Positions 4,613-21,769 of a DNA stretch of 64,000 nucleotides are shown here, one piece after another. The DNA lies in contig JBAYJE010000003.1 of NCBI GenBank assembly GCA_041665265.1, forward strand, positions 1,424-65,423, given 5' to 3'. Below the pieces are notes generated by a model. That model did not search any database and was not told where the DNA came from. It saw nothing but the letters and a program-made list of their open reading frames with translations. The translations under genes were made by a program, and so were the position numbers. Position 1 is the first letter of the stretch, and each line of letters starts with the position of its first letter. This DNA is from Minisyncoccota bacterium (GTDB lineage: Bacteria > Patescibacteriota > Minisyncoccia > UBA6257 > GWB1-50-10).

Positions 4613-4813
4613 ATGTTACCCAACGAAGCAGTGCAGGAGTTTAAAGAGCTTTACGAAAAACGCTATGGAGTGAAGTTGTCCGATGTCGAAGCAACGCTCA
4701 GAGCCAATAACCTTTTTAAGCTCTATAAGATCACCTATATGGGTGAGCCATCAGTAGATGATTTCAAAGAAAAATTGAATACAAGTCATGATCTCAAGCC
4801 AGACAACAATTAG
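4613..4813 (+). CDS. Hypothetical small protein (66 aa)
   Basis: It is an ORF with an ATG immediately after the A-rich tract. There are no recognisable motifs. It overlaps the next gene by 26 nt. Confidence 0.3.
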   Translation: MLPNEAVQEFKELYEKRYGVKLSDVEATLRANNLFKLYKITYMGEPSVDDFKEKLNTSHDLKPDNN

Positions 4814-5472: not shown

Positions 5473-5697
5473 TACTTACCTTCAGACCACTAAGGTCTCC
5501 CTAGTAAGAAAGAGGAATTAAGAATTAAAAGTAAGATTAGTTGTAAATAACAACAGCAAAAGCTGTCCAATGTTGAAAGGTTCGGGGGTTGGGCAACTCT
5601 TGGGCAAAACTTGGGTGGATTTTGAGGATGTTTGACTTCATCCAAGCATTAGCAGATGTTGTACCTAGACCAATAAAAATTAACGAAAAATAACCAT

Positions 5698-6429: not shown

Positions 6430-6431
6430 CT

Positions 6432-8045
6432 ATGCACCAGGAAGTATCACAAAAACTTAAATACTTCCTCTACGCAAGAAAGTCCTCTGAACAGGAGGAC
6501 AGACAAGTCGCTTCGATTGATTCGCAAATAGATTTTTTGAAAGATTTAGCAAAGCGTGAACACCTCGAGATCGTAGAGGTACTAACTGAATCCAAAAGTG
6601 CCAAAGCCCCGGGTAGGCCAATCTTTAACCAGATGACCGATCGGATTGAAAAGGGCGAAGCGCACGGCGTTATCTGCTGGAAGATAGACCGCCTAGCCCG
6701 CAATCCGGTGGACGGCGGTAAAGTGCAGTGGCTTTTACAAAGCAGCATTATCAAGCACATCAAGACCTTTGAGAGAAGCTATTACCCGTCTGATAATGTG
6801 CTCCTCATTAGCGTGGAGCTGGGCATGGCCAACCAATACATCCGTGACTTGGCCATCAATTCCCAGCGTGGAGTCAAAACCAAAGCAGCAACCGGCTGGT
6901 TCCCGGCCCCAGCTCCGATCGGATATTTGAACATAGCCGACAACGAATCAGGCATGAAAATTATCGGGAATGATCCGAAGCGTTTTGATCTGGTAAAAAA
7001 GATGTTTGAGCTGATGCTCACCGGTAATTATTCAGTACCGCGCATTCTTAAAATTGCTAACGGCGACTGGAGTTTCAGGATGCCGAGCGGACAGCCGATT
7101 GCCCGGAGCACGCTGTATAAACTTCTGACTGAGCCGTTTTATTACGGCCGGTATCAGTGGCCCAAAAAAGGCGGCATCTGGTACCAGGGCAAGCACGAAC
7201 CGATGATCACCGAAGAACAGTTTGACCGCATTCAGGAACTGCTGGGCCGAAAAGGAAAACCGCGCCCCAAAGTCCACGAATTTGCCTATACCGGCATGAT
7301 CCGCTGCGGTGAATGTGGTTGCCTCATCACGGCCGAAGAAAAGACTAAGCGTAATCAGAATGGCAACGTACATCACTACACTTACTATCACTGCACCAAA
7401 CGAAAAGGCCCCTGCACCCAAAGATGCGTCGAAGTAAAAGCCCTCGAGGTAGAAATCCAGAAAGCCCTTGCCACGATCGAGATACCGGAAGAATTTCACG
7501 ACTGGGCCATGAACTGGCTCCGGGTTGAGAACGCAAAAGAATCAGTTGACCGGAATACTATCCTGGCCACCCAGCAGAGAACGTATGAAGCATGTCTGAG
7601 AAAAATTGACCGGCTCATCGACATGAGAGCAGCCGGAGAAATAAGCGAAGAAGAATTTATAACAAAGAAAAATGAAAGTTTGAAAGAGAAAGCAAAACTT
7701 CAGGCACTGCTCAAAGCGACAGATGAACGAGCAGACAGCTGGCTTCAGACAGCAGAGCAAATACTTATATTCGCACAGGATGCACGGGAAAAGTTCGCCG
7801 GAGGCACACTTTCGGCAAAGCGCACGGTACTTTCAGCCCTTGGTTCGAACCTCCTGCTAAAAGACAAAAAACTCAATGGTGAACTGGATAAAGCCTTGTT
7901 ACCGCTGCAAAGGATCGCAGAAGCCGTCCGCGAGCATGCAAGACGGTTCGAACCTCTAACAAATCCAAGAAACAAACTGACATTCGAGGAACTTTGCATG
8001 CAAAGTCCAAACTGGCTGCGGGACCTGGATTCGAACCAAGATTGA
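6432..8045 (+). CDS. Large serine recombinase (integrase)
   Basis: N-terminal resolvase catalytic domain 'YARKSSEQEDRQVASIDSQ' (Ser nucleophile) and 'KIDRLARN', then a recombinase domain and a Cys-rich zinc ribbon 'CGECGCLITAEE...YYHCTKRKGPC'. It is 537 aa, and the last 33 nt overlap the tRNA-Gln 3' end. Confidence 0.9.
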   Translation: MHQEVSQKLKYFLYARKSSEQEDRQVASIDSQIDFLKDLAKREHLEIVEVLTESKSAKAPGRPIFNQMTDRIEKGEAHGVICWKIDRLARNPVDGGKVQWLLQSSIIKHIKTFERSYYPSDNVLLISVELGMANQYIRDLAINSQRGVKTKAATGWFPAPAPIGYLNIADNESGMKIIGNDPKRFDLVKKMFELMLTGNYSVPRILKIANGDWSFRMPSGQPIARSTLYKLLTEPFYYGRYQWPKKGGIWYQGKHEPMITEEQFDRIQELLGRKGKPRPKVHEFAYTGMIRCGECGCLITAEEKTKRNQNGNVHHYTYYHCTKRKGPCTQRCVEVKALEVEIQKALATIEIPEEFHDWAMNWLRVENAKESVDRNTILATQQRTYEACLRKIDRLIDMRAAGEISEEEFITKKNESLKEKAKLQALLKATDERADSWLQTAEQILIFAQDAREKFAGGTLSAKRTVLSALGSNLLLKDKKLNGELDKALLPLQRIAEAVREHARRFEPLTNPRNKLTFEELCMQSPNWLRDLDSNQD

Positions 8046-8086
8046 CGGATTCAGAGTCCGCTGTCCTACCATTAGACGATCCCGCA
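8013..8086 (-). tRNA. tRNA-Gln (anticodon CUG)
   Basis: The reverse complement reads TGCGGGA-TC-GTCT-AATGGTA-GGAC-A-GCGGA-CTCTGAA-TCCGT-CAAT-CTTGG-TTCGAAT-CCAGG-TCCCGCA-G-CCA. It is a clean cloverleaf with an encoded CCA. Confidence 0.85.
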
Positions 8087-8134
8087 ATATTCAATTATCA
8101 ACCCGCCAACCGTACTATTAGACGATCCCGTAAT
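8067..8134. repeat. 22-bp direct repeat that duplicates the 5' part of tRNA-Gln (copies at 8067-8088 and 8113-8134)
   Basis: taccattagacgatcccgcaat versus tactattagacgatcccgtaat (20/22). The second copy lies just outside the tRNA. Confidence 0.6.
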
Positions 8135-8398: not shown

Positions 8399-9166
8399 AT
8401 GAACATTGTTTTGACCGCGACTCAAGTTGAAAGAGAGTTAAAAAAACATGGAAATAAAACGAGAGCGAAATCCTCCGCGGGGTTTTTTAAAACAGAAAAA
8501 GGTGAGTATGGATATGGTGACGTATTTATCGGCGTCACTGTTCCCGAGCAGAGGAAGATTGCGAAGGGATGCAAGGAGCTTCCGCTTTCGGAAATAAAAA
8601 AACTTCTTGCGAGCAAATTCCATGAATGCCGTCTCACCGCGCTTCTCATTCTTGTTTCTCAATTCATAAGTGCAGATATACGTACGCGCGAGCGTATTGC
8701 AAAGTTTTATCTTGCAAATATAAAATACGTCAATAATTGGGACCTTGTAGATTCTTCCGCTCCTTATATTTTAGGAGAGCATCTCCTTAATACGAAGCGA
8801 GATATTCTCTACACGCTTGTGAAATCGAAGAATATTTGGGAGCGGCGTATCGCGATGCTCTCGACCTTCGCGTTCATACGAAACAACGAGTTCGCGGACA
8901 CTTTTTCCATCGCTGAACATTTACTCTCCGATACTCACGATCTTGTCCATAAGGCGACGGGATGGATGTTGCGCGAAGTAGGAAAGCATTCCCACTCAGC
9001 ACTCATACTGTTTCTCAAGATGCACGCTTCCCAAATGCCGCGCACTGCGTTGCGGTACGCAATAGAGCGTCTTTCAGAAAACGAAAGAAAGATGTTTCTG
9101 AACAAAAAAGATAATATTAAAATGCGCGAGGAGTTTTTCCCGCAACTTGAATACGTTTCAAAATAA
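8399..9166 (+). CDS. DNA alkylation repair protein (AlkD/AlkC-like HEAT-repeat glycosylase family)
   Basis: 'SAGFFKTEKGEYGYGDVFIGVTVPEQRKIAK' and 'KATGWMLREVG' match PF08713-type motifs. 255 aa. Confidence 0.7.
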   Translation: MNIVLTATQVERELKKHGNKTRAKSSAGFFKTEKGEYGYGDVFIGVTVPEQRKIAKGCKELPLSEIKKLLASKFHECRLTALLILVSQFISADIRTRERIAKFYLANIKYVNNWDLVDSSAPYILGEHLLNTKRDILYTLVKSKNIWERRIAMLSTFAFIRNNEFADTFSIAEHLLSDTHDLVHKATGWMLREVGKHSHSALILFLKMHASQMPRTALRYAIERLSENERKMFLNKKDNIKMREEFFPQLEYVSK

Positions 9167-9977
9167 GTTTTCCTTGGCGAACTTCCGCTTCTAAGAGCTT
9201 TGTGCGTTCCTTGTTACGAATAGTATAGACTCCAGGTTCCACACCTAATGCTCGAATTTTCTTATCAATTAATATTGCTTGTTCTGGATGTGTCCCAGAA
9301 AGAGCCTCTTCTAGATTTTTTTCATCAACAAATCCATCTTCGGTTTTGAATTTTGAGGTGAATGTGGCCTTTGATTCATCCTGTGGTTTTGCATCTTTAA
9401 TAGCTTTTTCAATAGTGGGAAATATTTTGATAAGCATTTCAGCACCAAGCCTCGCAAGTGCGTCATGAAGTGCGGGATAAGTAAGTGAGGTAAGCTCATA
9501 TGATTCAAGTATCTCTTCGGAAAGGATTGAGCCGTGGTCTACTTTTTCATCAACCATAAAGAGTGAAACACCCGTTTCTTTTTCATTCGAGAGAAGGGCG
9601 GATTGGATTGGTGTAGCACCACGAAAATGGGGGAGAAGAGAGGGATGAATGCCAATGGTGTGAAGGCGGGGAATGTCCAATATTCGCTTTGGAATAATGA
9701 GTCCATAAGCTGCGATGACAAAAAGGTCGTAGTTTCCAGCTTTTAATTGTTCTTCAATTTCTAATACCTTTTCTGGTTGCAGTATCTCAATCTGCTCACG
9801 AATATCTTCTTGCTGGTCAAGGATACTTTGTTTTGCAGGAGGGGGAGTGATGATCTTCTTTCTACCTACGGGACGATCAGGATTGCAGATAAGTGCTGCG
9901 GGTGGAAGTCCTGCACCAATAAGTCGTTCGAGAATAATGGCCGCGAATTCAGGCGTGCCGAAAAATGCGTATTTCAT
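9117..9977 (-). CDS. fmt: Methionyl-tRNA formyltransferase
   Basis: 'MKYAFFGTPEFAAIILERL' N-terminus and 'HPSLLPHFRGATPIQSALL'. It lies immediately downstream of def. Confidence 0.9.
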   Translation of the reverse strand: MKYAFFGTPEFAAIILERLIGAGLPPAALICNPDRPVGRKKIITPPPAKQSILDQQEDIREQIEILQPEKVLEIEEQLKAGNYDLFVIAAYGLIIPKRILDIPRLHTIGIHPSLLPHFRGATPIQSALLSNEKETGVSLFMVDEKVDHGSILSEEILESYELTSLTYPALHDALARLGAEMLIKIFPTIEKAIKDAKPQDESKATFTSKFKTEDGFVDEKNLEEALSGTHPEQAILIDKKIRALGVEPGVYTIRNKERTKLLEAEVRQGKLILKRIQVAGKTPRAF

Positions 9978-10493
9978 TTATTTCTTTGGAGGAAGTTTTT
10001 CTTTTGGTACAAGTTTAGTGAGCGTTTTTGCTTTATCAATAAAAAGCTTTCCATTTAAGTGATCGGTTTCGTGTTGGAACACTCGCGCGAGAAGTCCCCA
10101 CGCTTTAATTTTTATTTTCCGCTCGTGGATATCAAATCCCTCAAGGGTTACGCGATAGGCGCGCGGAGTAGGTCCGTATACTTCAGGAACACTAAGACAA
10201 CCCTCTTCAATTGTTATCATTTCACTTGAAATCTTAGTAAGTACGGGGTTGAAGATAGCATAAAATTTTTGACGGCCTTGTGTGTCAGGAACTTGCGCCA
10301 CAAAAAAGCATTCGTTGCGCCCTACCTGGTTTGCACTGAGTCCCACGCCGTTCGCTTTCTTCATTGTCTCACGCATTGTTTTTACAAGCAGGAGAAGTTC
10401 TTTCTTGTCATATTTTGAAAAATCAAAAGCCTCCGTTTTCTTTCTTAAAAATGCTTCATTTTCTTTTTTATGTATGGTGACTATTGGATTCAT
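9978..10493 (-). CDS. def: Peptide deformylase
   Basis: Motifs 'GVGLSANQVG', 'EGCLSVP' and 'HETDHLNG'. Confidence 0.9.
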   Translation of the reverse strand: MNPIVTIHKKENEAFLRKKTEAFDFSKYDKKELLLLVKTMRETMKKANGVGLSANQVGRNECFFVAQVPDTQGRQKFYAIFNPVLTKISSEMITIEEGCLSVPEVYGPTPRAYRVTLEGFDIHERKIKIKAWGLLARVFQHETDHLNGKLFIDKAKTLTKLVPKEKLPPKK

Positions 10494-10755
10494 GTAATTT
10501 ATTATCTTTGCTCAAGAGTACTCTCATAAAATAAGCGCCTTTCTTTTTTATATTTTTTGTTTCTGCAACTCGTTTTGCAATAGAAAGAAGATGATTTGCA
10601 TCAAATTGCTTTGCAAGTTTTATATAAAGACCCGCATGAGCATTATCTCCCAAAATTTCTGAGATAGTAAGACCGGTGAGTTGAAATTCCTGATAAATTT
10701 TACTCTTTGACCCTTTTTCTCTCAATGCTTTCACATAATTCTCATCGAACGGCAT
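10468..10755 (-). CDS. Hypothetical protein (95 aa), first gene of the def-fmt operon
   Basis: The ORF overlaps the def start by 26 nt. No known motifs. Confidence 0.4.
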   Translation of the reverse strand: MPFDENYVKALREKGSKSKIYQEFQLTGLTISEILGDNAHAGLYIKLAKQFDANHLLSIAKRVAETKNIKKKGAYFMRVLLSKDNKLHESNSHHT

Positions 10756-10792
10756 TGTTTCTATTCTATGGTATTATGAGAACGAAGAAAAG

Positions 10793-12070
10793 GTGATGTA
10801 CAAGAAGTCACCCTTCGTGATTAAATTAATTAACACAATGATAAAAAAATATTTAAAAAACGTCAGCATTATATTGCTCGCCCTCCTTATTTTTGGAGGA
10901 GTTGCATTAGGAAGTTATACTGTGGGGAAAAAGGTAGGAGTAGAACGTTCAATAGTAATTACTGATAGTAAACAGATTATCGACGCTGATTTTTCTCTTT
11001 TTTGGAACGCAATTGACCTTGCAAAACAGAAACAAGTGGATGCGGGCGGCATCAAAGATGAAAAGTTTCTTTATGGCGCGATTAAGGGAGCTCTTACGGC
11101 ATTTGAGGATCCTTATACTTCATTTTTTGAGCCATCAGATGCAAAGAAATTTGAACAAGATTTGAATGGTAGTTTTGGTGGCATTGGTGCACAGATTGGA
11201 ATGAGAGAGGAGCAAATAGTAGTTATCGCGCCGCTTAAGGGGAATCCTGCAGAGGCAGCGGGGTTGAAACCTATGGATAAGATTCTCAAAATAAATGACA
11301 CATTTACTGCAGGAATGAATGAGGAAGATGCAGTAAAAATAATTCGTGGAGATGTGGGTACGGAAGTGAGACTTCTCATTTTGCGTAATGGTTGGAAAGA
11401 TACGAAAGAATTTAAGATTACACGCGCAATTATCCAAGTGCCCACACTGGATACAGAGATGAAAACACTAAAGTCGGGCGATAAGGTGGTATGGATGAAA
11501 TTATATAATTTCAATTCAAATGTGCCTCCGCTTTTTCATACCGCAGCACTTCAGGCAATGACCGAGGGTGCTAAAGGAATAATTCTTGATATGCGCAATA
11601 ATCCTGGTGGATTTCTTGATGTTTCAACGGACCTTGCAGGATGGTTTCTTCCAAGAGGCTCGGTGGTGGTAAAAGAAAAGACTCGTTCTGGAGAGGAAAA
11701 ATCACTTTTTGCCTCGGGGAACGCGGCATTTGGTGATATTCCGGTGGTAGTACTTGTAAATAGTGGTTCTGCTTCCGCATCAGAGATTCTTGCGGGTGCC
11801 CTGCACGATATTCGTGGTGCAAAACTTGTAGGAGAAAAAACATTTGGAAAAGGAAGTGTTCAAGAGATACAAAATCTTCAAGGTGGAGCATCGATGAAAA
11901 TAACTATCGCACATTGGTTTACACCGAAGGGAACAAAAATTGATAAGGTGGGTTTAAGTCCCGATGTTGAGGTAAAACTTACCGACGTTGATGTAGAAAA
12001 AAAGACCGACCCACAATTAGACAAAGCACTCGAAGTTATAGAAAAAGAGCTTTCTCTAATAAAACAATAA
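10793..12070 (+). CDS. ctpA: Carboxy-terminal processing protease (S41 peptidase, CtpA-like)
   Basis: N-terminal TM, a PDZ region, and 'LDMRNNPGGFLD', 'GSASASEILAGAL', 'GEKTFGKGSVQ'. Confidence 0.85.
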   Translation: MMYKKSPFVIKLINTMIKKYLKNVSIILLALLIFGGVALGSYTVGKKVGVERSIVITDSKQIIDADFSLFWNAIDLAKQKQVDAGGIKDEKFLYGAIKGALTAFEDPYTSFFEPSDAKKFEQDLNGSFGGIGAQIGMREEQIVVIAPLKGNPAEAAGLKPMDKILKINDTFTAGMNEEDAVKIIRGDVGTEVRLLILRNGWKDTKEFKITRAIIQVPTLDTEMKTLKSGDKVVWMKLYNFNSNVPPLFHTAALQAMTEGAKGIILDMRNNPGGFLDVSTDLAGWFLPRGSVVVKEKTRSGEEKSLFASGNAAFGDIPVVVLVNSGSASASEILAGALHDIRGAKLVGEKTFGKGSVQEIQNLQGGASMKITIAHWFTPKGTKIDKVGLSPDVEVKLTDVDVEKKTDPQLDKALEVIEKELSLIKQ

Positions 12071-12076
12071 TTATAT

Positions 12077-12514
12077 ATGCAAGTCATTCTTCTAAAAGAT
12101 GTAAAAGGAATAGGAAAAAAAGGAGAAGTACGCAATGTAAATGATGGACACGCACGAAACTTTCTTCTTCCTAAGCAACTCGCGGTTATTGCAACCGAAA
12201 AATCAGTAGCACATATTGAGCGCACCAATAACGAGCAGCTTGAAGCTGAAAAAGAACGTGTAAAAAAATTGAAGGCACGAGCACAAGAACTCACGAAAAT
12301 AAAATTGCATTTTGTCTTGAAAGCAGGGGAGAAAGGAGAGATTTTCGGTTCTGTCTCCGCAAGGGATATTGAAAAGGAAATGCATCGTTTTGAAACGAAT
12401 GGGAAAGCGCTTCTTGAGCATCCCCTAAAAGCACTGGGCATTTTCCCCGTATCTATTGATATAGGAGAGGGTATTTGTACAACAATCACTGTCGAGATAA
12501 AGCCAGAAAAATAG
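12077..12514 (+). CDS. rplI: 50S ribosomal protein L9
   Basis: 'MQVILLKDVKGIGKKGEVRNVNDGHARNFLLPKQLA'. Confidence 0.9.
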   Translation: MQVILLKDVKGIGKKGEVRNVNDGHARNFLLPKQLAVIATEKSVAHIERTNNEQLEAEKERVKKLKARAQELTKIKLHFVLKAGEKGEIFGSVSARDIEKEMHRFETNGKALLEHPLKALGIFPVSIDIGEGICTTITVEIKPEK

Positions 12515-12518
12515 AAAC

Positions 12519-12548
12519 AAAAAATCCCGCTACTCGCGGGATTTTGAT
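12519..12548 (+). terminator. Intrinsic terminator after rplI
   Basis: AAAATCCCGC-tact-GCGGGATTTT followed by a T-run. Confidence 0.7.
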
Positions 12549-12589
12549 TTAGACACAAACAATCCTTCATTTATATATGATAAGTATTA

Positions 12590-12617
12590 TTGACAAATAG
12601 TTAAATTATAGTATAAT
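12590..12617 (+). promoter_or_regulatory. Consensus sigma70 promoter (TTGACA-16-TATAAT)
   Basis: TTGACA at 12590-12595 and TATAAT at 12612-12617. It is upstream of the 12689 gene. Confidence 0.6.
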
Positions 12618-12688
12618 GTTTCTAGTTCGTTCCAATGAGGACTTTTGTTCCTCTCATCAATTCATCAATTAATAGATAGGAGATATTT

Positions 12689-13345
12689 ATGAAACGTTCC
12701 TTTGTTGTTTTAATGGCTTTCCTTGTCATTCTTTCGACAGGTTTGGTATTTGCTCAAAAGTCTGCTGTTCGTTCGGATTCAAGTATTTCACAGGCTATGA
12801 CGCCGGAAGAAGCAAAGAAAATTCGCGAAAGTGTTATTGCACTTGGTGAGCTCTTTGGTGTGAATCAGAATTCACAGCAGCAGAATCAACAGCCGGTTCA
12901 GCAGCAAAATCAACAACAAGGCTCCGGTAAGACCGTTGCCGATGTTGCCGACAAGGCTTTAGATCTTCTTGCAAAGGGAATTACCACCATCGCGGAGAAT
13001 CTTGAAAAGACGGCGCCGTTTGTTTGGAAGGTAATGATCAAACAGCAGTATGCAAATGCCATCGCAAATCTGATCGTACCATGGAGTTTATTCTTCGGAG
13101 TAGTGACCTATATGTCTATTAGCCGAAAAATGTTTAAGAAGAGTGATCGTGAAATTGATGGAAAAATTGATTGGGACAGTGGTCGTGTTTGGGTTGTTTC
13201 TGCTATTCCAACAATTCTTTTAATTATTTTTGGCACCTGGGGATTCAATCGGCTCTCTGATTCGATTCAACTCCTCATCAATCCAGAATATTATGCGATT
13301 CGCGATCTTTTGCGCATGATTATGTCAGGTGGAAAGACATTCTAA
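12689..13345 (+). CDS. Hypothetical secreted/membrane protein with a Q-rich linker and 2 C-terminal TM helices
   Basis: Signal peptide 'MKRSFVVLMAFLVILSTGLVFA', a 'QQQNQQPVQQQNQQQ' tract, and two hydrophobic helices. Confidence 0.55.
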   Translation: MKRSFVVLMAFLVILSTGLVFAQKSAVRSDSSISQAMTPEEAKKIRESVIALGELFGVNQNSQQQNQQPVQQQNQQQGSGKTVADVADKALDLLAKGITTIAENLEKTAPFVWKVMIKQQYANAIANLIVPWSLFFGVVTYMSISRKMFKKSDREIDGKIDWDSGRVWVVSAIPTILLIIFGTWGFNRLSDSIQLLINPEYYAIRDLLRMIMSGGKTF

Positions 13346-13364
13346 AGTTCGTGCTACAAAGTTT

Positions 13365-13392
13365 GCCAGTTTCTTTTGAAACTGGCTTTTTA
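13365..13392 (+). terminator. Intrinsic terminator
   Basis: GCCAGTTTC-ttttg-GAAACTGGC plus TTTTT. Confidence 0.7.
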
Positions 13393-13398
13393 TTACAC

Positions 13399-13429
13399 AA
13401 AAAAATCCACCCATAAGGGGTGGATTTTA
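13399..13429 (-). terminator. Intrinsic terminator of rpmA (it reads as a hairpin plus U-run on the minus strand)
   Basis: ATCCACCC-ataa-GGGGTGGAT with a flanking A/T run. Confidence 0.65.
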
Positions 13430-13430
13430 C

Positions 13431-13703
13431 TTAGACAATATTTACGACTCGAACGAACTTCCGCGATCCATCAAAATGCACACGTTTCTTTGTAGAATAT
13501 TTGATGACACCTTCTTTTTTTGCATAGAGTGTGTCGTCGCCACCACGAAGTACATTGGTGCCAGGGTAGAACTTTGTTCCACGCTGACGGATGATGACTT
13601 CTCCTGGAGCAACTTTCTCACCATCAAAAAGCTTGACGCCAAGTCGTTTCGATTCTGATTCTCGCCCTAATTTAGTAGAGCCTTTCGCTTTGGTATGTGC
13701 CAT
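13431..13703 (-). CDS. rpmA: 50S ribosomal protein L27
   Basis: '[51 protein letters not shown]'. Confidence 0.9.
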
Positions 13704-13984
13704 GGTTCTTATGAATACCGCCCTTTTGGCGGTTCACTAATACCCCTGTATAATAAGTGAAACAAGGTAATAATGTCAATCGTTCTTGCGCGAATTGTGG
13801 TGTGGATAAGAGAGCATCAAAAAGCTATTTTCTTCTGGTTCCTTCTTTTCTTGGTGGGAAGTCTTGGATTTGCGGTTGGGTATCTTATGGCACATGGAGA
13901 GATAAGGGCTCCTATAATCATTGAAAAATGTTCAAAATAGGGATATTGTGATTTCAGCAATCCACCAAAAAATGAGGAGGGTGT

Positions 13985-14197
13985 ATGGTACAAAAAAGGC
14001 AGTGGCGTGTAAGAAATATCATCATAATGGTATGTATTGCCATTGTTTCCCTTGTGTTTCTTCTCAGTGAAAATCCGTGGGCAGTTCTGCTTTCCATATT
14101 CCTATATTTTCTGGTTTTTGCTTTTGCGGGAGCATTCGTATGGAGCCTCAGCAAAACAAAATTGGGGAATGGATATCGTGGCATGTTCAAGGATTGA
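13985..14197 (+). CDS. Small membrane protein (2 TM, 70 aa)
   Basis: There is a strong RBS, GAGGAGGG, 5 nt upstream of the ATG. Two hydrophobic helices. Confidence 0.45.
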   Translation: MVQKRQWRVRNIIIMVCIAIVSLVFLLSENPWAVLLSIFLYFLVFAFAGAFVWSLSKTKLGNGYRGMFKD

Positions 14198-14284
14198 TAC
14201 CGGAGATTTATCTAAAGCCGCAGCAATGCGGCTTTCTATTTGAAAATATTTGAATAATTTGTATACTAGAGAGGCATTTATATA

Positions 14285-14369
14285 TGCGCGGGTGGCGAAA
14301 CTGGCAGACGCACTACCTTGAGGTGGTAGCACCCGTAAGGGTATGCAGGTTCAACTCCTGTCCCGCGCA
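14285..14369 (+). tRNA. tRNA-Leu (anticodon GAG), long variable arm, no encoded CCA
   Basis: GCGCGGG-TG-GCGAAACTGGCAGACGC-ACTACC-TTGAGGT-GGTAG-CACCCGTAAGGGTATG-CAGGTTCAACTCCTG-TCCCGCGC-A. Confidence 0.85.
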
Positions 14370-14573
14370 CTAATATCAAAAGGACGTTCAACAACGTCTT
14401 TTTTGATATCCATGTTAGGAGGAGTTGAACCGTAGGCCGAAGACCTCGAAGAGAGGGCGTAGGTCTCGAACATAGCAATGTGAGAGGAAACTCCTGTCCC
14501 GCGCACTAATATCAAAAGGACGTTCAACAACGTCTTTTTTGATATCCATGTTAGGAGGAGTTGAACCGTAGGC
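14353..14573. repeat. Tandem 85-bp direct repeat (copy 1 at 14353-14437, copy 2 at 14489-14573). Each copy holds the last ~17 nt of tRNA-Leu, a terminator hairpin and an inverted T-arm fragment.
   Basis: 'aactcctgtcccgcgcactaatatcaaaaggacgttcaacaacgtcttttttgatatccatgttaggaggagttgaaccgtaggc' occurs twice, 136 bp apart. The 51-bp spacer has its own hairpin (AGACCTC...AGGTCT). Confidence 0.8.
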
Positions 14574-14736
14574 TCCCTGTTTTCTTAGCAAGCGAAGCGA
14601 GTTTAGAAAACAGCAGTGTCGCATGCCATGCGGCCCGTAAGTCACGAACAAAGAGGAGATTGACAAATACTATATAATATGATACCATGTAGTAGTTCAT
14701 TAGCACCCCACAATTTAATAATAAGGAAGGAAATTC

Positions 14737-15078
14737 ATGAAAAAAATCATGATAGTTGTAGGAATAATTCTTCTTTCATTCTTCGGAACTAAACATTTCG
14801 AAATGAGTGAGAAGATTGCTCCGCTTGAAGAACAGTTCGTTGTCACTGCTGAACAATTTGAAGGATCGAAGGAATTAGCAATAAAAGGGTCTGCGGTGTA
14901 TGAAGGAAAACTTGATCGAATTGTAGATGTAAGAAACCGTCTCTTACGCGAAAACAAGTACTTGAAGATGGGTGGATGGGTTGTCCGAGGCGGACGACCA
15001 GAAACAGTTGTTGTTTGCATCTATGCCGGATTCCTTCCAGAAAAGTGGTATGACACAATAGCGTCATATAATATGTAG
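14737..15078 (+). CDS. Hypothetical secreted protein (113 aa)
   Basis: N-terminal signal/TM 'MKKIMIVVGIILLSFFG'. It is followed by a terminator. Confidence 0.5.
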   Translation: MKKIMIVVGIILLSFFGTKHFEMSEKIAPLEEQFVVTAEQFEGSKELAIKGSAVYEGKLDRIVDVRNRLLRENKYLKMGGWVVRGGRPETVVVCIYAGFLPEKWYDTIASYNM

Positions 15079-15083
15079 TTATA

Positions 15084-15114
15084 TAAGCGGCTCAATGAGT
15101 CGCTTTTTTTTTTG
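15084..15114 (+). terminator. Intrinsic terminator
   Basis: AGCGGCTC-aat-GAGTCGCT plus T10. Confidence 0.65.
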
Positions 15115-15154
15115 CCTTTAAAAGGCTGGTGGCACAGGGTATAATGGAATAACT

Positions 15155-15499
15155 ATGGCAGTTGCGACATTTTTAAAACAAAAAACGTTGGTAACGCTTA
15201 TTATCATAAGTGTATTATTTATGATTGTGTCGCTTGCCCTTGTTGCGATGAATTATGGAGCCATTACACAAAACATAGTTCTTCATTTTGATGCATTTCA
15301 GGGTGTCGACCTCTTTGGTTCAAAGGCAAACCTATGGGGTGTGTGGGTTTTAGGACTCATGATGATGATGGTGAATGGCATTCTTTGTTATGAATTTTAT
15401 AATCGCGAGCGCTTTTTTTCATATCTTTTCATTATGGGAAATGTACTCATTAGTATGCTTGTGCTTATTATAGATGCGGTACTTATCTCAATTAATTAA
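15155..15499 (+). CDS. Hypothetical polytopic small membrane protein
   Basis: 114 aa with 3-4 hydrophobic helices. Confidence 0.5.
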   Translation: MAVATFLKQKTLVTLIIISVLFMIVSLALVAMNYGAITQNIVLHFDAFQGVDLFGSKANLWGVWVLGLMMMMVNGILCYEFYNRERFFSYLFIMGNVLISMLVLIIDAVLISIN

Positions 15500-15502
15500 T
15501 TT

Positions 15503-16588
15503 ATGAATACTTTCTTTAGTGTATTTCTCGGCATTATCCTCGCAATAGTTATTGGGGGATTTGTTGTGCTCTTTCGAATGATGAAAAAGAATAGAACGCC
15601 AGCCGAAGATGCACAATCATTGCTTCTCCTTCAAAATCAGATGCAAACGCAGTTTCAGGAATTAAGGCGCTCTGTTGAGCGAGGATTCGGTGATTCGGTG
15701 CAGTTTATGCAACATCAAACGAGTGCATCTCAACAGATTATTCGTGATGTAACTGAGCGTCTTACGAAGCTTGATGAAACAAATCGCCAAGTAGTTAATT
15801 TTGCAGACCAACTTCAGTCATTGCAGGATATTCTAAAAAATCCTAAACAACGTGGTATTTTGGGAGAATTTTATTTAGAGACACTTTTGAAAAATGTCTT
15901 GCCTCCAGGAAGTTATGAGGTGCAATATCACATGGGAAGAGATGAAAATACAGAAAAAGACCTTATTGTTGATGCGGTCGTATTTGTGAAGGACAAGATT
16001 ATTCCAATTGATTCAAAATTTTCTCTTGAAAACTATAATCGTCTTGCAGAGGAAAAAGATCCAGTAGAGCGAGAAAAATTGGAGAAATTATTTAAGAACG
16101 ATCTTAAAAATCGAATTGATGAGACGGCAAAATATGTACAACCTTCAAAAGGAACCATGGATTTTGCATTTATGTTTATTCCCCATGAAGCAATTTATTA
16201 TGATCTTTTGGTGGCCCAGGTGGGTGCAGTGAAGGTGAATACTCGGGATTTAATTGAATACGCATTTAAGGAAAAACACGTGATCATTGTCTCTCCAACC
16301 TCATTTCTTGCATATCTTCAGACGGTATTGCAAGGACTTAAAGCACTTCAAATTGAGGAGTCTGCAAAAGATATTATTAAACGTGTGGAAGAACTTGGAA
16401 AACATGTTGCGAGTTATGAGTCGTGGGTTCAAAAATTGGGAAACAATCTCGATACTACTGTAAAATCATATAATGCGGCATATAAAGAATTGGGGAAGAT
16501 TGACAAAGACGTGATGCGCATCACAAAAGGTGAGATAGTAATTGAGCCGATGGTACTTGAGTCACCAACGCATCGAGAGATGGAATAA
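15503..16588 (+). CDS. rmuC: DNA recombination protein RmuC
   Basis: N-terminal TM, a coiled coil, and the conserved 'LIVDAVVFVKDKIIPIDSKFSLENY' (the IPIDAKFPLE-type motif). Confidence 0.75.
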   Translation: MNTFFSVFLGIILAIVIGGFVVLFRMMKKNRTPAEDAQSLLLLQNQMQTQFQELRRSVERGFGDSVQFMQHQTSASQQIIRDVTERLTKLDETNRQVVNFADQLQSLQDILKNPKQRGILGEFYLETLLKNVLPPGSYEVQYHMGRDENTEKDLIVDAVVFVKDKIIPIDSKFSLENYNRLAEEKDPVEREKLEKLFKNDLKNRIDETAKYVQPSKGTMDFAFMFIPHEAIYYDLLVAQVGAVKVNTRDLIEYAFKEKHVIIVSPTSFLAYLQTVLQGLKALQIEESAKDIIKRVEELGKHVASYESWVQKLGNNLDTTVKSYNAAYKELGKIDKDVMRITKGEIVIEPMVLESPTHREME

Positions 16589-16589
16589 G

Positions 16590-17489
16590 ATGGAAATAGA
16601 GATAAAGAATCTTTTTACGTTTTACGACGTCCTTGGGCGCCCTCTTACGCTTATTGAAATTTTTATTCATCTTCCGAGTTTGAAGCAAAATATACAAGAG
16701 ACGCGGAGAATACTTTCAAAACTAATTCGTGAAAAAATTGTAATAGAAGAAGACGGGTTTTATAGATTGAGGGGAGCCTCATACGATAGCATGTCACGAA
16801 GGAAGCAGGATTTATTAGGTGATATGAAGTGGAAGAAGCTCGTAAAACTTTCTCGATGGTTTCGGTATGTTCCATTTGTCCAATTTGTGGTTGCGAGTGG
16901 TTCTCTTGCGTTTGGCAACGTGAATGCGCGTTCCGATTTCGATGTAGTAGTCGGAGTGTCTAGCGGAAGAATGTTTACTGCGCGCTATTTTCTTCTTGCT
17001 CTTTTTTCACTTTTGCACGGAAGACGAATGGATGATGCGCATGAAAGTAGCCCTGATAAGCTCTGTTTCAATCATTTTGTTACTCCAGATACCTACGAAA
17101 AATTACCCCACAATACATATCGACTCCAACTGTATCGAAACACGATTCCTCTTTGGGGCGATGAAAATGCATTGCAAGATTTTATTACACAAAACGTGTG
17201 GGCAGACCTTCCTCAAAATAGTGTTTATGATACACACAGAAATAAGCTCGCACCAAGTAATGTAAAAATAATTTTAGAAAAACTCTTAAAAGGCTCTTTA
17301 GGAGAATTTGTTGAGCAAAAGATAATGCGTCCGATTGCAATGAAGCGACTTGAGAAATATATTGCAAATAAAGAAAATAACGGCCGAGTGGTCGTAAGCG
17401 ATAAGGAACTCGAGTTCCATTTTAACCTTAATTACGAGAAACGTTTTTCCGATACTGCTACTTCTTTATCTTGTGAGGATTGTGGTTAA
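16590..17489 (+). CDS. Winged-helix plus minimal nucleotidyltransferase (Pol-beta superfamily) domain protein
   Basis: 'GSLAFGNVNARSDFDVVV' is a GS-x10-DxD nucleotidyltransferase signature. The 3' end overlaps the convergent topA by 32 nt. Confidence 0.5.
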   Translation: MEIEIKNLFTFYDVLGRPLTLIEIFIHLPSLKQNIQETRRILSKLIREKIVIEEDGFYRLRGASYDSMSRRKQDLLGDMKWKKLVKLSRWFRYVPFVQFVVASGSLAFGNVNARSDFDVVVGVSSGRMFTARYFLLALFSLLHGRRMDDAHESSPDKLCFNHFVTPDTYEKLPHNTYRLQLYRNTIPLWGDENALQDFITQNVWADLPQNSVYDTHRNKLAPSNVKIILEKLLKGSLGEFVEQKIMRPIAMKRLEKYIANKENNGRVVVSDKELEFHFNLNYEKRFSDTATSLSCEDCG

Positions 17490-19647
17490 CACAGGCTTTA
17501 TTTGAGCAACGCTCGGGAATCGTTTTTGTGCCTTCCATCATAAGTGAGCCACAAAGATCACATTTATTACCCGTAGGACGAGATTTCATTATAAATTTGC
17601 AGGAAGGGTAATTTGAACAACTAAAAAATGCGCCAAAGCGTCCGCGACGTTCTATGATATCCCCATTATCGAGTGGACATTTTACGCCCGTACGCTTCTT
17701 AGCCTCTTCTTCGGGGCTTTGTTTAATATAATGACAGCCTTTTTTTCCGCGGGACCAATTACTGCACGCGATGAATTTCCCAAATCGTCCCTCGCGTTCA
17801 AGAAGTTTCCCGCCACAATCGGGACATAATTCTCCCGTTTCCTTTGGTCCTTCCATAAGAGTGCCATCGAGTTTGCGCGCACCTTTGCATTGTTTTGTCT
17901 TATCCTTTTCGTCAAAGAGACGGCAGCTCAAAAACTTTCCTGCACGACCAAGTTTAATAACCATGGTGCCGTGTGAGGCATCAAGAGGACAGGTGAAACG
18001 AGCATCTTCTCCAAGTGTGGTAGCTTTCTCTAACTTATCCTTTTCTTTCACTTCTTTTACAAACGGAATATAGAAATCTTTCAATACTTTTTTGTATTCC
18101 TTCTTTCCTTCTGCAATTTCATCAAGTTTATTCTCCATTTCCGCAGTAAATGAATCACTAATGTAGTTTGCAAAATTCTTTTCCAAGAAATCACTCACTA
18201 CTTCGCCGGTATCAGTGGGATGAAGCGTTTTATTTTGCTTCTCAATGTAACCACGTTCATCAAGAGTGCGGATAATAGCAGCGTACGTACTCGGACGGCC
18301 AATTTCGCGCTTTTCAAGTTCTTTTACAAGTCCTGCTTCTGTATAACGCGGAAGGGGTTCTGTTTCTTTTCCCTCACTTTCGATTGAGACGAGAGTTAAT
18401 GGCTCATCCTTCTCTAAATGAGGAAGCTCATGTTCTTCACCGCGCGCACCCGTATCAGCCATAAGCCATCCAGGGAAGATAACAATATTACCGGTCATCG
18501 AAAAAAATGGAATTTCGGCACCTTTTGCTTCTGCAACTATCTTAGTACGAAGCAATTGAGCGTCGGTCATTTGAGATGCAAGTGTGCGTTGCCAAATGAG
18601 TTCATAAAGTTTTTTCTGCTCATCATTGCCTCCCGCATGATGAAGTGACATTTTTGTAGGACGAATTGCCTCGTGTGCTTCTTGAGCATTTTTACTTTTT
18701 GTCACATAGGTTCGTGGGGAAAGATATTCCTTACCATATGTTTTTTCAATTTCCGTATACATCTCAGCAAGTGCAATGGAGCTTAAATTCACACTGTCAG
18801 TTCTCATATAGGTAATAAACCCTGATTCATACAATTTCTGTGCAATACCCATAGTGCGAGAAGGCGAGTATCCAAGACGCGAGCTTGCCGCTTGTTGGAG
18901 TGTTGAGGTGATAAAGGGAGGTTTTGGTGAGCGTTTTGCTTCAGTCTTTTTTACCGAAGCAATATGCCACGGGTGTGTTCGTGCTGCACCAAGAATGCGT
19001 TCTACTTCCTGTTCATTTTTCGGTTCGTCTTCACAGGTAAGTTCGAGTTGGTGTTTTTCTGTTTTGCACTGTGCTTTAATTACCCAAAAATGTTCTGGGA
19101 TAAATGCACGAATTTCTCGTTCGCGTTCCATAATAATGCGAAGTGCAGGGGATTGTACGCGCCCCGCGGAAAGTCCGTAGCGCACTTTCTTCCAAATAAG
19201 TCCGGAAAGGTCATAGCCTACAAGCCTATCAAGAACACGACGCGCTTCCTGCGCTTTACGAAGATTTTCATCAATCTCGCGAGGATGTTTCATTGCCTCA
19301 AGAATTGCGGGTTCGGTAATCTCGTGAAATACTACCCGTTTCGGATTCTTTAGATTACACGCTTCTTTAATGTGCCATGCAATTGCCTCACCTTCTCGGT
19401 CAGGATCAGTAGCAAGAAGTACTTCATCCGCTTTCTTTGAAAGTTTAATGAGCTCTTCGACAATTTCTGTTTTTGCTTTTGCAATTTCGTAGTGGGGAAT
19501 AAATCCACCGGGAATGTCAATTGCTTTTTTATTACTTTTTGGAAGATCGCGAATATGTCCGACGCTTGCGCGGACTTTGTATTCTCCTTTTAAATATTTT
19601 TCGATTGTCTTCGCTTTTGCGGGACTTTCAACAATAACTAATTTCAT
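17458..19647 (-). CDS. topA: DNA topoisomerase I with C-terminal zinc ribbons
   Basis: 'MKLVIVESPAKAKTIEKYLKGEYKVRASVGHIRDLP' and multiple C-terminal C4 zinc-ribbon motifs. Confidence 0.95.
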   Translation of the reverse strand: MKLVIVESPAKAKTIEKYLKGEYKVRASVGHIRDLPKSNKKAIDIPGGFIPHYEIAKAKTEIVEELIKLSKKADEVLLATDPDREGEAIAWHIKEACNLKNPKRVVFHEITEPAILEAMKHPREIDENLRKAQEARRVLDRLVGYDLSGLIWKKVRYGLSAGRVQSPALRIIMEREREIRAFIPEHFWVIKAQCKTEKHQLELTCEDEPKNEQEVERILGAARTHPWHIASVKKTEAKRSPKPPFITSTLQQAASSRLGYSPSRTMGIAQKLYESGFITYMRTDSVNLSSIALAEMYTEIEKTYGKEYLSPRTYVTKSKNAQEAHEAIRPTKMSLHHAGGNDEQKKLYELIWQRTLASQMTDAQLLRTKIVAEAKGAEIPFFSMTGNIVIFPGWLMADTGARGEEHELPHLEKDEPLTLVSIESEGKETEPLPRYTEAGLVKELEKREIGRPSTYAAIIRTLDERGYIEKQNKTLHPTDTGEVVSDFLEKNFANYISDSFTAEMENKLDEIAEGKKEYKKVLKDFYIPFVKEVKEKDKLEKATTLGEDARFTCPLDASHGTMVIKLGRAGKFLSCRLFDEKDKTKQCKGARKLDGTLMEGPKETGELCPDCGGKLLEREGRFGKFIACSNWSRGKKGCHYIKQSPEEEAKKRTGVKCPLDNGDIIERRGRFGAFFSCSNYPSCKFIMKSRPTGNKCDLCGSLMMEGTKTIPERCSNKACVNHNPHKIKK

Positions 19648-19767
19648 TCCGTTAGGATTTTACCTTTTTAAGGTTATTCTTTTCGACGCCATTTTGTATC
19701 ATTTCATTTTTCATAATGTGTATTTGTAAAACCTTAACGGGATTCATAAACATTCTTTTATACTACC

Positions 19768-20649
19768 TCAATTGTTTTTTATTCTAAACTTTCCACTCAC
19801 TTCTTCGATTATTCCTGAAAAAAGAAGGAGGGTGAGTTTCTCATTCACAATATGAGGTTGTAGTGTAGTCAGCTCAAGTATTTTGTCAATTGAGAGTGGT
19901 TCGTGTGCACTTGTAAGTACTCGCACAATTTGTGATTCAAATTCACTGAGCGCAATATTGTTTTCTCTTGCGCTCGTGAGCGAAGGGGACGTTTCAACAC
20001 CAAGGTCTTCTAGAATATCTGCGCAGTTTGTCACAAGGCGCGCACCATTTCGAATGAGCATATGAGAACCTTTATAGTTAGCATTATTCACACTTCCGGG
20101 AAAGACAAATACCTCGCGTCCTTGTTCAATTGCATTGCGTGCGGTGGCAATTGAGCCTGAGCGAAGTGGCGCTTCAATAACGATAGTTGCGATAGAAAGA
20201 CCACTTACAATACGATTCCGCTCAAGAAATTGATTTGGATATGCAGGAGTTCCTTCTACGTATTCTGAAATGAGACATCCACCGGACTCAAGAATGTGCT
20301 CTGCAAGATGTTCGTGCTGACGAGGATACACATGGTCAAGACCATTTGCAAGTACTGCAATAGTGCGACCGCCCGCCTTAAGTGTCCCTTCATGCGCGGC
20401 GGCATCAATACCGAGTGCGAGACCACTCACGATAGTAATGCCACGTAAGGCAAGTGTTTCAGCAAGTTCGTGTGCAAGTGCTAATCCCTCACGCGATGCT
20501 TTTCGTGTGCCTACAATTGCAACACATGATTCATGTGAGGTGGGAAGAATGCCACGATAGTAAAGTGTGTTAGGCGCTCCAGGAATTTCGGAGAGGAGAG
20601 GAGGATATAATTCTGATTCTTCGTGTAGAACACACACCGGAAGTTTCAT
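19768..20649 (-). CDS. dprA: DNA processing protein DprA (Smf)
   Basis: 'VAIVGTRKASREGLALAHELAETLALRGITIVSGLALGIDAAAHEGTLKAGGRTIAVLANGLDHVYP'. Confidence 0.9.
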   Translation of the reverse strand: MKLPVCVLHEESELYPPLLSEIPGAPNTLYYRGILPTSHESCVAIVGTRKASREGLALAHELAETLALRGITIVSGLALGIDAAAHEGTLKAGGRTIAVLANGLDHVYPRQHEHLAEHILESGGCLISEYVEGTPAYPNQFLERNRIVSGLSIATIVIEAPLRSGSIATARNAIEQGREVFVFPGSVNNANYKGSHMLIRNGARLVTNCADILEDLGVETSPSLTSARENNIALSEFESQIVRVLTSAHEPLSIDKILELTTLQPHIVNEKLTLLLFSGIIEEVSGKFRIKNN

Positions 20650-21479: not shown

Positions 21480-21551
21480 GGGTGTGTAGTTCAGTGGTAG
21501 AACGCTGTCCTGATAAGACAGAGGTCGAAGGTTCGATTCCTTCCACACCCA
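21480..21551 (+). tRNA. tRNA-Ile (anticodon GAU)
   Basis: GGGTGTG-TA-GTTC-AGTGGTA-GAAC-G-CTGTC-CTGATAA-GACAG-AGGTC-GAAGG-TTCGATT-CCTTC-CACACCC-A. Confidence 0.85.
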
Positions 21552-21587
21552 CAAAGAAAGGCCTTGTGAGGAGGTCTTTTCTTTAGC

Positions 21588-21661
21588 GGGCCTGTAGCTC
21601 AGTTGGTTAGAGCGCCTCATTTGCAATGAGGAGGTCACCGGTTCGAATCCGGTCAGGTCCA
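21588..21661 (+). tRNA. tRNA-Ala (anticodon UGC) with a G3:U70 identity pair
   Basis: GGGCCTGTAGCTCAGTTGGTTAGAGCGCCTCATTTGCAATGAGGAGGTCACCGGTTCGAATCCGGTCAGGTCCA. Confidence 0.85.
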
Positions 21662-21769
21662 CAAATTGCTCTTTTGGGTAGAAGTGTCCCACTTAACAAA
21701 TAGAGAGTTCTACTCAATTTAGTATTGATTTGAAAAATGGGTCGCGATAGATAATACTTATATACGTAG

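Follow-up and report, generated by a model that had tools for sequence, protein, structure and literature searches.

Duplicated tRNA-Leu 3′ ends around small hairpin cores in a Candidatus Paceibacterota genome: a possible family of miniature non-coding elements at tRNA T-loops

Partial copies of tRNA genes are a standard footprint of integrative elements and are usually read as the scars of large gene-bearing islands. Cis-mobilisable elements (CIMEs), known from Streptococcus thermophilus, are flanked by attachment (att) sites, carry no recombination genes, are derived from integrative elements, and are moved in trans. Miniature inverted-repeat transposable elements (MITEs) and other small palindromic repeats include the Correia elements, the Rickettsia palindromic elements (RPEs), and the GC clusters of mitochondria. 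The T-loop is a known crossover sublocation of tRNA-integrating elements (Williams 2002, as cited in PMC3146451 and bioRxiv 10.1101/2020.12.28.424599). The ssrA islands of Dehalococcoides, which encode the 540-aa serine recombinase DsiB, are inserted in the T-loop and bounded by 20-bp direct repeats, and their recombinase gene overlaps the 3′ end of the RNA gene (PMC3146451); the tycheposon islands of Prochlorococcus leave partial-tRNA scars and accrete in tandem (bioRxiv 10.1101/2020.12.28.424599). The locus described here lies in a 64,000-nt stretch of DNA from a Candidatus Paceibacterota bacterium of the candidate phyla radiation (CPR); the whole stretch is called the window, and positions refer to it unless a locus label is given. 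Behind a tRNA-Leu(GAG) gene of the window, a tRNA footprint bounds a 57-nt hairpin core that has relatives at another tRNA, and is accompanied by an inverted copy of the tRNA end, a combination that departs from the usual footprint. Labels such as L006 and L008 denote fetched CPR loci, L006 being from the sister genome of the window, and every sequence compared is a short-read metagenome assembly.

The order of the locus reads as a tRNA body followed by two tandem units, A-B and A-C, because the A parts are identical and the B and C cores share both of their ends. The features are as follows.

14286-14370, plus strand: intact tRNA-Leu(GAG) gene, CCA not encoded (ARAGORN; Rfam RF00005, 48.6 bits, full length)
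14348-14431, no strand assigned: long imperfect palindrome P1, folding at -38.7 kcal/mol
14353-14437, plus strand: repeat copy A1 (85 nt, 100% identity), made up of the tRNA fragment F1 (14353-14370), terminator T1, inverted T-arm F′1, and GTAGGC
14378-14404, no strand assigned: terminator T1, stem GACGTT/AACGTC, loop CAAC, flanked by A4 and T6, apparently bidirectional, at the tip of the long palindrome
14432-14488, plus strand: B-type element, 57 nt, two hairpins, ending in the conserved motif TCGAACATAGCAATGTGAGAGG, with a homologue behind tRNA-Gln in L006
14489-14573, plus strand: repeat copy A2 (direct repeat), made up of the orphan tRNA fragment F2 (14489-14506), T2 (14514-14540), F′2 (14556-14567), and GTAGGC
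14568-14665, plus strand: C-type element, ends shared with B, inner hairpin motif also in L006 and L008

The exact duplication of 85 nt that a first-pass annotation of the window had described is found at 14353-14437 and 14489-14573, with 100% identity, a start-to-start distance of 136 nt, and a unique spacer of 51 nt (14438-14488) between the copies. Each copy opens with the final 18 nt of tRNA-Leu, from the T-loop interior to the discriminator (F; the annotation had counted about 17 nt), so that the edge of the repeat lies in the T-loop. The inverted T-arm F′, AGGAGTTGAACC (14420-14431 and 14556-14567), matches the reverse complement of the T-arm, GGTTCAACTCCT (14348-14359), at all 12 nt. 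The annotation had noticed this inverted copy; beyond that, it is one half of a long terminator-centred palindrome that recurs at other tRNAs. In P1, the T-arm at 14348-14359 pairs with F′1 at 14420-14431 over 12 bp, the 3′ strand of the acceptor remains in an internal loop, and the extended stem of the terminator caps the structure. The terminator hairpin and the inverted T-arm motifs occur only in these two places in the 64-kb window, and shuffled sequences are expected to contain none. The spacer is structured, as had been stated, folding at -16.2 kcal/mol (z about -2 against dinucleotide shuffles), with two small hairpins in place of the single one proposed. ARAGORN finds no second tRNA gene at the locus. 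Rfam 15 recovers tRNAs only, both in a gathering scan of the window and in E-value mode on the locus and eight related loci, the best non-tRNA matches in the element regions having at most 16 bits or E > 1.

The spacer is not anonymous: together with the preceding 6 nt, it forms a 57-nt element with a homologue at the tRNA-Gln gene of the sister genome. There, the order is a terminator, GGATTCGAACC (the reverse complement of the tRNA-Gln T-arm), a 57-nt core, and GAATCCAGGTC (a partial copy of the tRNA-Gln 3′ end). B with its adjoining inverted T-arm (14421-14487) is 80.6% identical over 67 nt to this counterpart (L006 56-122, minus strand; E 1.5e-11), and nhmmer recovers the B homologue at L006 tRNA-Gln with an E-value of 7e-16. 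One hairpin has changed in a compensatory manner (CCTC/GAGG against CCGC/GCGG), and the motif TCGARCATAGCAATGYGAGAGG stands directly before the tRNA fragment in both, the junction of the B end with F being exemplified by CATAGCAATGTGAGAGGAAACTCCTGTCCCGCGCA. At both genes, the flanking inverted T-arm and 3′ copy fit the local tRNA. The C core shares both ends with B by reading, starting with GTAGGC and carrying CGTAAGTCACGAACA..AGAGGAG at its 3′ end, and its interior is a long hairpin, CTCCCTGTTT...AAACAGCAGTG. This hairpin also occurs between a duplicated tRNA-Gln 5′ fragment and tRNA-Gln itself in L006 and L008, where it is about 88% identical between two genomes whose coding DNA is 67-79% identical. 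As B is shared between tRNA-Leu and tRNA-Gln, and C between the tRNA-Leu trailer and the tRNA-Gln leader, the cores constitute an element family. The consensus fold of F′-B-F2 is a three-way junction in which 8 of 23 pairs are compensatory; the closing-helix pairs covary by construction, and most of their compensatory changes are automatic because both strands stem from the local T-arm.

The tRNA-Gln leaders also contain further pieces. In the window, a degenerate direct copy of the tRNA-Gln 5′ end (8113-8134, minus strand; 22 nt, 91%, 46 nt upstream) lies between the promoter and the gene. L006 (379-402) and L008 (629-643) have an intact tRNA-Gln 5′ copy that is parted from the gene by the conserved C-type hairpin element of about 125 nt; the C-type element has no copy in the tRNA-Gln leader of the window and is present behind its tRNA-Leu. 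In L006, a 121-aa open reading frame (ORF) without a Pfam match (6732-7097) follows the second repeat copy and is absent from the window, and the stretch with its ribosome-binding site and start (AAGGAGTTGAACGGTATG) has its homologue in the inverted T-arm plus the first bases of B. Behind the tRNA-Gln of L008, a 50-nt direct repeat (888-937 and 1010-1059; 96%, spacing 122) contains a terminator-like hairpin and no tRNA fragment; terminator duplications of this kind may be more widespread in tRNA trailers.

The layout behind tRNA-Leu, comprising a tRNA 3′ end, a bidirectional terminator, an inverted T-arm, a structured spacer, and a second tRNA 3′ end, is kept in at least four other lineages, ordered below by the identity of their RmuC protein to that of the window.

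L006/L013: RmuC 96%, repeat of 52 nt (exact), spacing 136 nt
L008/L010: RmuC 80%, repeat of 82 nt (exact), spacing 148 nt
L039: RmuC 76%, repeat of 17 nt, spacing 168 nt
L096: RmuC 76%, repeat of 18 nt plus a diverged homologous terminator, spacing about 182 nt

In L096, the entire module is inverted relative to its neighbours. L094 (77%) has only the first half, and two outgroups, L012 (74%) and L015 (70%), possess tRNA-Leu(GAG) without the module. From this distribution, the module probably arose once in the ancestor of the clade and was then retained. No tRNA-Leu site occupied by a gene-bearing element is seen among the relatives examined, the empty sites being those of L012 and L015. A scaffold gap of 100 N lies within the first repeat copy of L009 (5760-5859), and the L007 contig ends (position 1) within the tRNA-Gln leader element.

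Within each genome, the two copies are identical over 85 of 85 nt in the window, 52 of 52 in L006, and 82 of 82 in L008. The terminator of L008 (ACACTC...GAGTGT) is unrelated in sequence to that of the window, and the window and L006 differ by a C/T exchange in the terminator loop, both copies being alike within each genome. Since the copies are identical within genomes and different between them in three lineages, they have undergone concerted evolution, and gene conversion between close direct repeats would be the simplest process to homogenise them. The identities between the window and L006 are listed by segment.

L27 gene: 91.9%
Intergenic DNA: 75.4%
70-aa ORF: 66.5%
Promoter region: 83.0%
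tRNA-Leu: 95.3%
T1 and F′: 95.1%
B: 94.7%
A2: 96.5%

The module is thus about 95% identical, equal to the tRNA, next to adjoining non-coding DNA of 66-75%, and looks younger or far more constrained than its surroundings. The first-pass annotation had taken the two copies as what is left after excision or decay of a tRNA-integrating element. Its retention in at least five lineages and a degree of conservation equal to that of the tRNA show that the module is no decaying scar. Nor is it a leftover of excision, which, if precise, would leave a single copy. B can hardly be aligned with the sequence at the corresponding position in L008, and uniform purifying selection would not produce 95% identity with L006 alongside such divergence from L008. 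The conservation may possibly reflect a recent exchange of the module between co-resident species or a strong lineage-specific constraint, and the species of the window and of L006 are both present in one sample. Over window positions 9000-20000, the two genomes have a common gene order and a RmuC protein identity of 96%, and their long aligned blocks are only about 83-88% identical at the nucleotide level.

Similar inserts are found at other tRNAs. The CPR tRNA sample (48-59 tRNAs, depending on the count) was collected via one marker gene and is phylogenetically clustered; within it, an inverted T-arm match of at least 9 nt lies within 400 nt downstream of 9 of 48 non-redundant tRNAs, and one lies upstream. 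In 11 of 11 instances, at five different tRNAs, the stretch from the T-arm to F′ folds into a single long imperfect hairpin that is capped by the terminator. The inverted copy spans 20 of 22 nt of the tRNA 3′ fragment in L063 and still takes in part of the acceptor strand in L025, L039, and L096; in the window and L008, only the T-arm part pairs (11-12 bp), and the acceptor strand lies in an internal loop without complementarity. The duplicated segment at these sites comprises 11-85 nt of the tRNA 3′ end, and four instances are given below.

L022, tRNA-Met: direct copy of 17 nt, spacing 207 nt, inverted T-arm present
L025, tRNA-Glu: direct copy of 20 nt, spacing 180 nt, inverted T-arm present
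L077, tRNA-Arg: direct copy of 16 nt, spacing 143 nt, inverted T-arm present
L073, tRNA-Ala: direct copy of 21 nt, spacing 78 nt, inverted T-arm absent

At all of the tRNAs concerned (Leu, Met, Glu, Arg, and Ala), the repeat has its left edge within the T-loop or on the 3′ border of the loop; the same T-loop left boundary is seen in nine other instances checked, and an intact gene lies on one side. A filled and an empty site are available for the same tRNA-Arg/tRNA-Ala pair: L080 has a gap of 8 nt, and L077 has an insert of 143 nt with a 16-nt duplication, its native spacer (as in L080) following the second copy. In L058 (about 185-2387), tRNA-Glu is followed by a gene for a 671-aa PEP-utilising enzyme and then by a 23-nt copy of the tRNA 3′ end, which has a terminator of its own; this 2.2-kb interval has no integrase or recombinase and resembles a cassette of a single gene between tRNA-end repeats. 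Partial 5′ copies stand upstream of 8 of 59 tRNAs and downstream, as a control, of none, and several of them carry GC-rich palindromic insertions in the D-loop. These palindromes (18-39 nt, e.g., CCTGCCTGCGCAGGCAGG) occupy the same D-loop position in orphan 5′ fragments of three tRNAs in three genomes (L008 643-672; L018 about 4080-4100; L073 upstream of tRNA-Arg) and look like small mobile hairpins of the GC-cluster type.

That no integrase is present, as had been noted, holds only locally, and the window itself does contain a recombinase. The nearest to the repeat lies 6.3 kb away at tRNA-Gln: a large serine recombinase of 537 aa (6432-8045, plus strand) whose last 33 nt overlap tRNA-Gln (8013-8086, minus strand). 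It closes a GC-richer island (0.45-0.48 against about 0.40) that spans about 1-8045 and runs on to the left of the window, and which further holds a SpoVG-like gene, a gene for a 1045-aa KAP NTPase, and an ApaLI-type restriction-modification pair:

2401-3105: ApaLI-like restriction enzyme
3108-4289: N6/N4 methylase

The recombinase family is very large in CPR metagenomes, and the homologues in L101, L102, and L104 likewise overlap a tRNA-Asn or a tmRNA-like 3′ end, an arrangement that matches the DsiB islands of Dehalococcoides. By analogy, this family is a plausible candidate for a trans-acting enzyme of the elements. The GGTTCGAACC motifs within the recombinase genes encode the conserved peptides GSN and RFEP. 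A scan of 20 window ORFs revealed no tyrosine recombinase, a phage megablast gave no match, and pattern scans of viral contigs gave nothing or chance matches within coding DNA.

The reading favoured here, which is given about an even chance of being right, is that the locus belongs to a family of miniature, non-autonomous, non-coding elements residing at tRNA T-loops, with an attL/attR-like duplication that is kept uniform by gene conversion. The comparisons with related genomes thus point to the miniature element that the first-pass annotation had offered as one of its options. One unit would consist of a replacement tRNA 3′ end, a bidirectional terminator, an inverted T-arm copy, and a small hairpin core (B or C), and one or two such units would be stacked in the T-loop of tRNA-Leu(GAG). 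Recombination in the T-loop would join the element-borne 3′ end to the tRNA body, leaving the gene intact, while the older 3′ end and its terminator would be displaced downstream, eventually producing the attL/attR-like direct repeat. An element without its own recombinase would be moved in trans or by homologous recombination; it could rely on a T-loop-specific recombinase, such as the large serine recombinase family at tRNA-Gln, or on DNA uptake followed by homologous recombination, with the tRNA and its duplicated end as homology arms. Gene conversion would subsequently hold the two 85-nt copies identical. This reading is supported by the T-loop left edge, which coincides with the known sublocation of tRNA-integrating elements, by the filled and empty sites (L077 and L080, with L012 and L015 lacking the module), and by the cargo gene between the copies in L058. 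The cores shared between two tRNAs, the contrast in identity between the module and its surroundings, the concerted evolution of the copies, and the precedent of the DsiB islands with a candidate enzyme of like kind in the window also speak for it.

Several observations weigh against such an element. In none of the five lineages does a recombinase adjoin the tRNA-Leu repeat, the recombinase island shows neither its far end nor a B-like motif within 15.6 kb, and the metagenome assemblies compared contain neither a circular form nor an occupied/empty polymorphism within a species. Copies are also few: in 957 kb of CPR loci, the F′-B-F2 covariance model matched only its four training copies, the B junction motif gave only chance matches in viral contigs, and a metagenome pattern scan for an inverted T-arm with a second tRNA-Leu 3′ end recovered nothing beyond the L006-type contig and one unrelated match of high GC content. 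The upstream 5′ copies resemble decaying tandem pseudo-tRNAs, which suggests that they were duplicated locally and not integrated. Neither the inverted T-arm nor the terminator-centred palindrome is expected from conservative site-specific recombination; a fold-back or template switch is the better fit for both, and the long retention in streamlined genomes may indicate a function at the level of the host.

Such a host function is the basis of the main alternative, a functional RNA or terminator module under host selection, which is somewhat doubtful. The module would provide two tandem bidirectional terminators, and read-through would yield a structured 3′-trailer RNA, F′-B-F2-T2, modelled as a three-way junction closed by F′ and F2 with a single-stranded tail that mimics the acceptor strand. 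This trailer might serve as a small RNA (sRNA), a sponge, a decoy, or a processing signal, a tentative assignment, and the duplication, in a scenario no less doubtful, would be local in origin and kept because both halves are needed. The 3′ETS-leuZ of E. coli, a functional sRNA sponge cut from a tRNA trailer, is a precedent. A selected RNA would agree with a module conserved like the tRNA between the window and L006 amid non-coding DNA of 66-75%, with the preservation of the inverted T-arm (10-12 nt) and F2 (14-18 nt) over the Leu clade despite unalignable spacers, and with the L096 terminators, which are diverged homologues with both stems kept. It would also agree with spacer cores that are all GC-rich (0.43-0.73 against about 0.40 for the window) and well folded (z -2 to -6), with the 8 of 23 compensatory pairs of the consensus fold, and with the unrelated duplicated 50-nt terminator module behind tRNA-Gln in L008. 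RNA function, however, needs no identical 85-nt copies that include the terminator loop, and unlike uniform constraint, the 95% identity between the window and L006 stops short of L008. Moreover, no Rfam family matches, the Leu-clade spacers share no core nucleotides beyond AGAGG, no consistent upstream promoter is seen by reading, the second copy is lost in L094 and absent from L063, and most of the compensatory pairs in the closing helix follow from the local T-arm origin. An assembly artefact, in which a short-read assembler doubled 136 bp, is scarcely credible. The material consists only of short-read metagenome assemblies, and the 100-N gap in the first copy of L009 does reveal assembler trouble; the duplication is the same in the JGI and ENA assemblies of one sample (JGI 3300037810 / ERZ27249449), to whose contigs the window is identical, which does not exclude an artefact by itself because the two may share reads. 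The module is nevertheless real: independent assemblies of different samples and species (L006/L013, L008/L010, L039, and L096) share its architecture but vary in sequence and in spacing (136, 148, 168, and about 182 nt), and this recurrence excludes an assembly duplication.

A purely mutational by-product, with neither element nor function, is unlikely. Fold-back or template switching at the terminator and T-arm hairpins, of the tandem-inversion-duplication type that the Roth laboratory reportedly described in Salmonella as arising by snap-back at quasi-palindromes, would yield plus/minus/plus fragments, which would later acquire GC-rich palindrome insertions and undergo gene conversion. This process requires no recombinase and accounts well for an inverted copy that mirrors the tRNA 3′ end about the terminator (20 of 22 nt in L063, partially in L025, L039, and L096), for tRNA-derived pieces that all match the local tRNA, for partial tRNA copies both upstream and downstream of tRNAs, and for GC-rich palindromes at a single D-loop position of orphan 5′ fragments in L008, L018, and L073. 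It does not explain the B core at two tRNAs (81%) or the shared C hairpin, and the tRNA body is not the source of B on either strand. A second direct copy abutting the inverted T-arm is predicted and not seen, junk that evolves neutrally would not be expected to keep 95% identity between genomes that are about 85% identical over aligned flanks, and the window pairs a 12/12 inverted T-arm with a 0/10 complementary segment beside it, unlike neutral decay. Very unlikely is the remnant of one large integrase-bearing island or prophage at tRNA-Leu, of which all but 51 nt was lost and a neutral attL/attR scar was left. The T-loop boundary, the replacement 3′ end with its own terminator, and the larger cargo-bearing interval in L058 would suit it, and partial-tRNA scars of degenerated elements are well documented in other streamlined genomes. 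Against this stand a mini-architecture kept in at least five lineages, a homologous 57-nt core at a second tRNA, copies that are held identical within a module far more conserved than its neutral neighbours, and the lack of an occupied Leu site in any relative examined. A more speculative idea, quite improbable, is that the hairpin core moves between tRNAs as an integrase-free, self-retargeting unit whose flanks (T-arm antisense and 3′-end sense) are re-templated at each target and act as guide segments, a folded target mimic, or homology arms. By analogy, the same improbable scheme might follow the logic of bridge RNAs or guide RNAs, resemble the folded attP of phage CTX, or provide homology arms for natural transformation among CPR species with the same tRNA.

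Other identities for the locus were considered and rejected. Neither a pseudo-tRNA origin of the second copy nor a derivation of B from the tRNA body is borne out, as local alignments in both orientations score no higher than those of shuffled sequences in 6 of 7 instances; the ungapped identity at period 136 is about 25% by reading, and the spacer is not recognisable as a decayed tRNA body. A tRNA-like gene or tmRNA-like fold on the minus strand was dismissed by reading, L039 being able to form an acceptor-like helix and the window, L008, and L022 not. The only small ORF common to the spacers of the window and L006 has 7 codons and is out of frame in L008. A group I intron, a trans-splicing ribozyme, or a small self-cleaving ribozyme was set aside because the cores are too short, have no nucleotides conserved across lineages, and match no Rfam family. 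The spacer is not a remnant of the recombinase gene 3′ end either, as tblastn of recombinase C-termini against the mini-elements matched only the antisense of tRNA-Gln. Integron attC sites are defined as imperfect palindromes, R″(RYYYAAC)...R′(GTTRRRY), of 57-141 nt beside an IntI/attI platform; the Leu T-arm (GTTCAAC/GTTGAAC) fits this consensus by reading and those of Met, Glu, Arg, and Gln (TTCGAT, TTCGAA) do not, so the likeness was judged a coincidence.

The neighbours of tRNA-Leu are the gene for ribosomal protein L27, small ORFs without known function, and RmuC, and the flanking genes more broadly encode the ribosomal proteins L9 and L27, RmuC, topoisomerase I, and DprA. The nearest relatives of the RmuC protein bear the names Candidatus Paceibacterota or Patescibacteria. 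At 21480-21662, tRNA-Ile(GAT) and tRNA-Ala(TGC) are adjacent, a pair typical of rRNA spacers; the arrangement is also present in L006, L012, and L039, and the gathering scan of Rfam finds no rRNA gene in the 64 kb. GC skew is positive throughout, and a replication origin or terminus was rejected because the skew is uniformly positive over the window.

The module is conserved like a tRNA in bacteria with genomes of about 1 Mb, from which junk is usually lost. Should the elements prove mobile, they would rank with the smallest site-specific insertion units known, would help in tracing how DNA moves among CPR bacteria, which lack most classical vectors, and would represent natural att sites for the very large T-loop serine recombinase family of CPR metagenomes; as RNA genes, they would form a further class of sRNA derived from tRNA trailers. 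For genome annotation, such modules interrupt short-read assemblies at tRNA genes and carry a risk of pseudo-tRNA mis-annotation.

Compared with described systems, the locus shares with T-loop att systems a repeat that consists of the tRNA 3′ part from the T-loop onwards, an incoming copy that restores the gene and brings a terminator, tandem stacking with partial tRNAs in between, and a streamlined host. It differs in that the interval is only 51-140 nt, non-coding, and free of an integrase, in that the block of identity is long (82-85 nt) and an inverted tRNA 3′ copy forms a terminator-centred palindrome, and in that the module, neither transient nor decaying, shows stable inheritance and high conservation. 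The Dehalococcoides DsiB islands are alike in their mid-T-loop insertion, in repeats of about 20 bp of the RNA-gene 3′ end, and in a conserved end motif directly upstream of the repeat, and the window genome has a homologous-type serine recombinase of 537 aa whose 3′ end overlaps tRNA-Gln on the opposite strand. Those islands, however, are 10-30 kb long and carry cargo, whereas tRNA-Leu has no recombinase gene and no link in sequence could be traced from the B motif to the recombinase island. Tandem inversion duplications likewise comprise a plus, a minus, and a plus copy, and a natural hairpin, here the terminator, is the centre of one junction; the second junction of the module holds a transferable structured core in place of a T-arm hairpin, and the module measures tens of nucleotides rather than kilobases and is stable and conserved. 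MITEs are also small, non-coding, hairpin- and GC-rich in an AT-rich genome, present in more than one copy, and intergenic near terminators, but the elements described here have no fixed terminal inverted repeats and no short target-site duplication, their flanks are copied from the local tRNA, and they number only four copies. CIMEs resemble the module in having att-like repeats as flanks and no recombinase or transfer genes, and mobilisation in trans by a related recombinase is conceivable in principle for the module too. They are kilobases long with an evident parent integrative and conjugative element, in contrast to a 57-nt hairpin core for which no parent element was found, and the related cores reside here at different tRNAs with flanks specific to each; the finding thereby extends the partial-tRNA att footprint and the CIME concept to a core of 57 nt.

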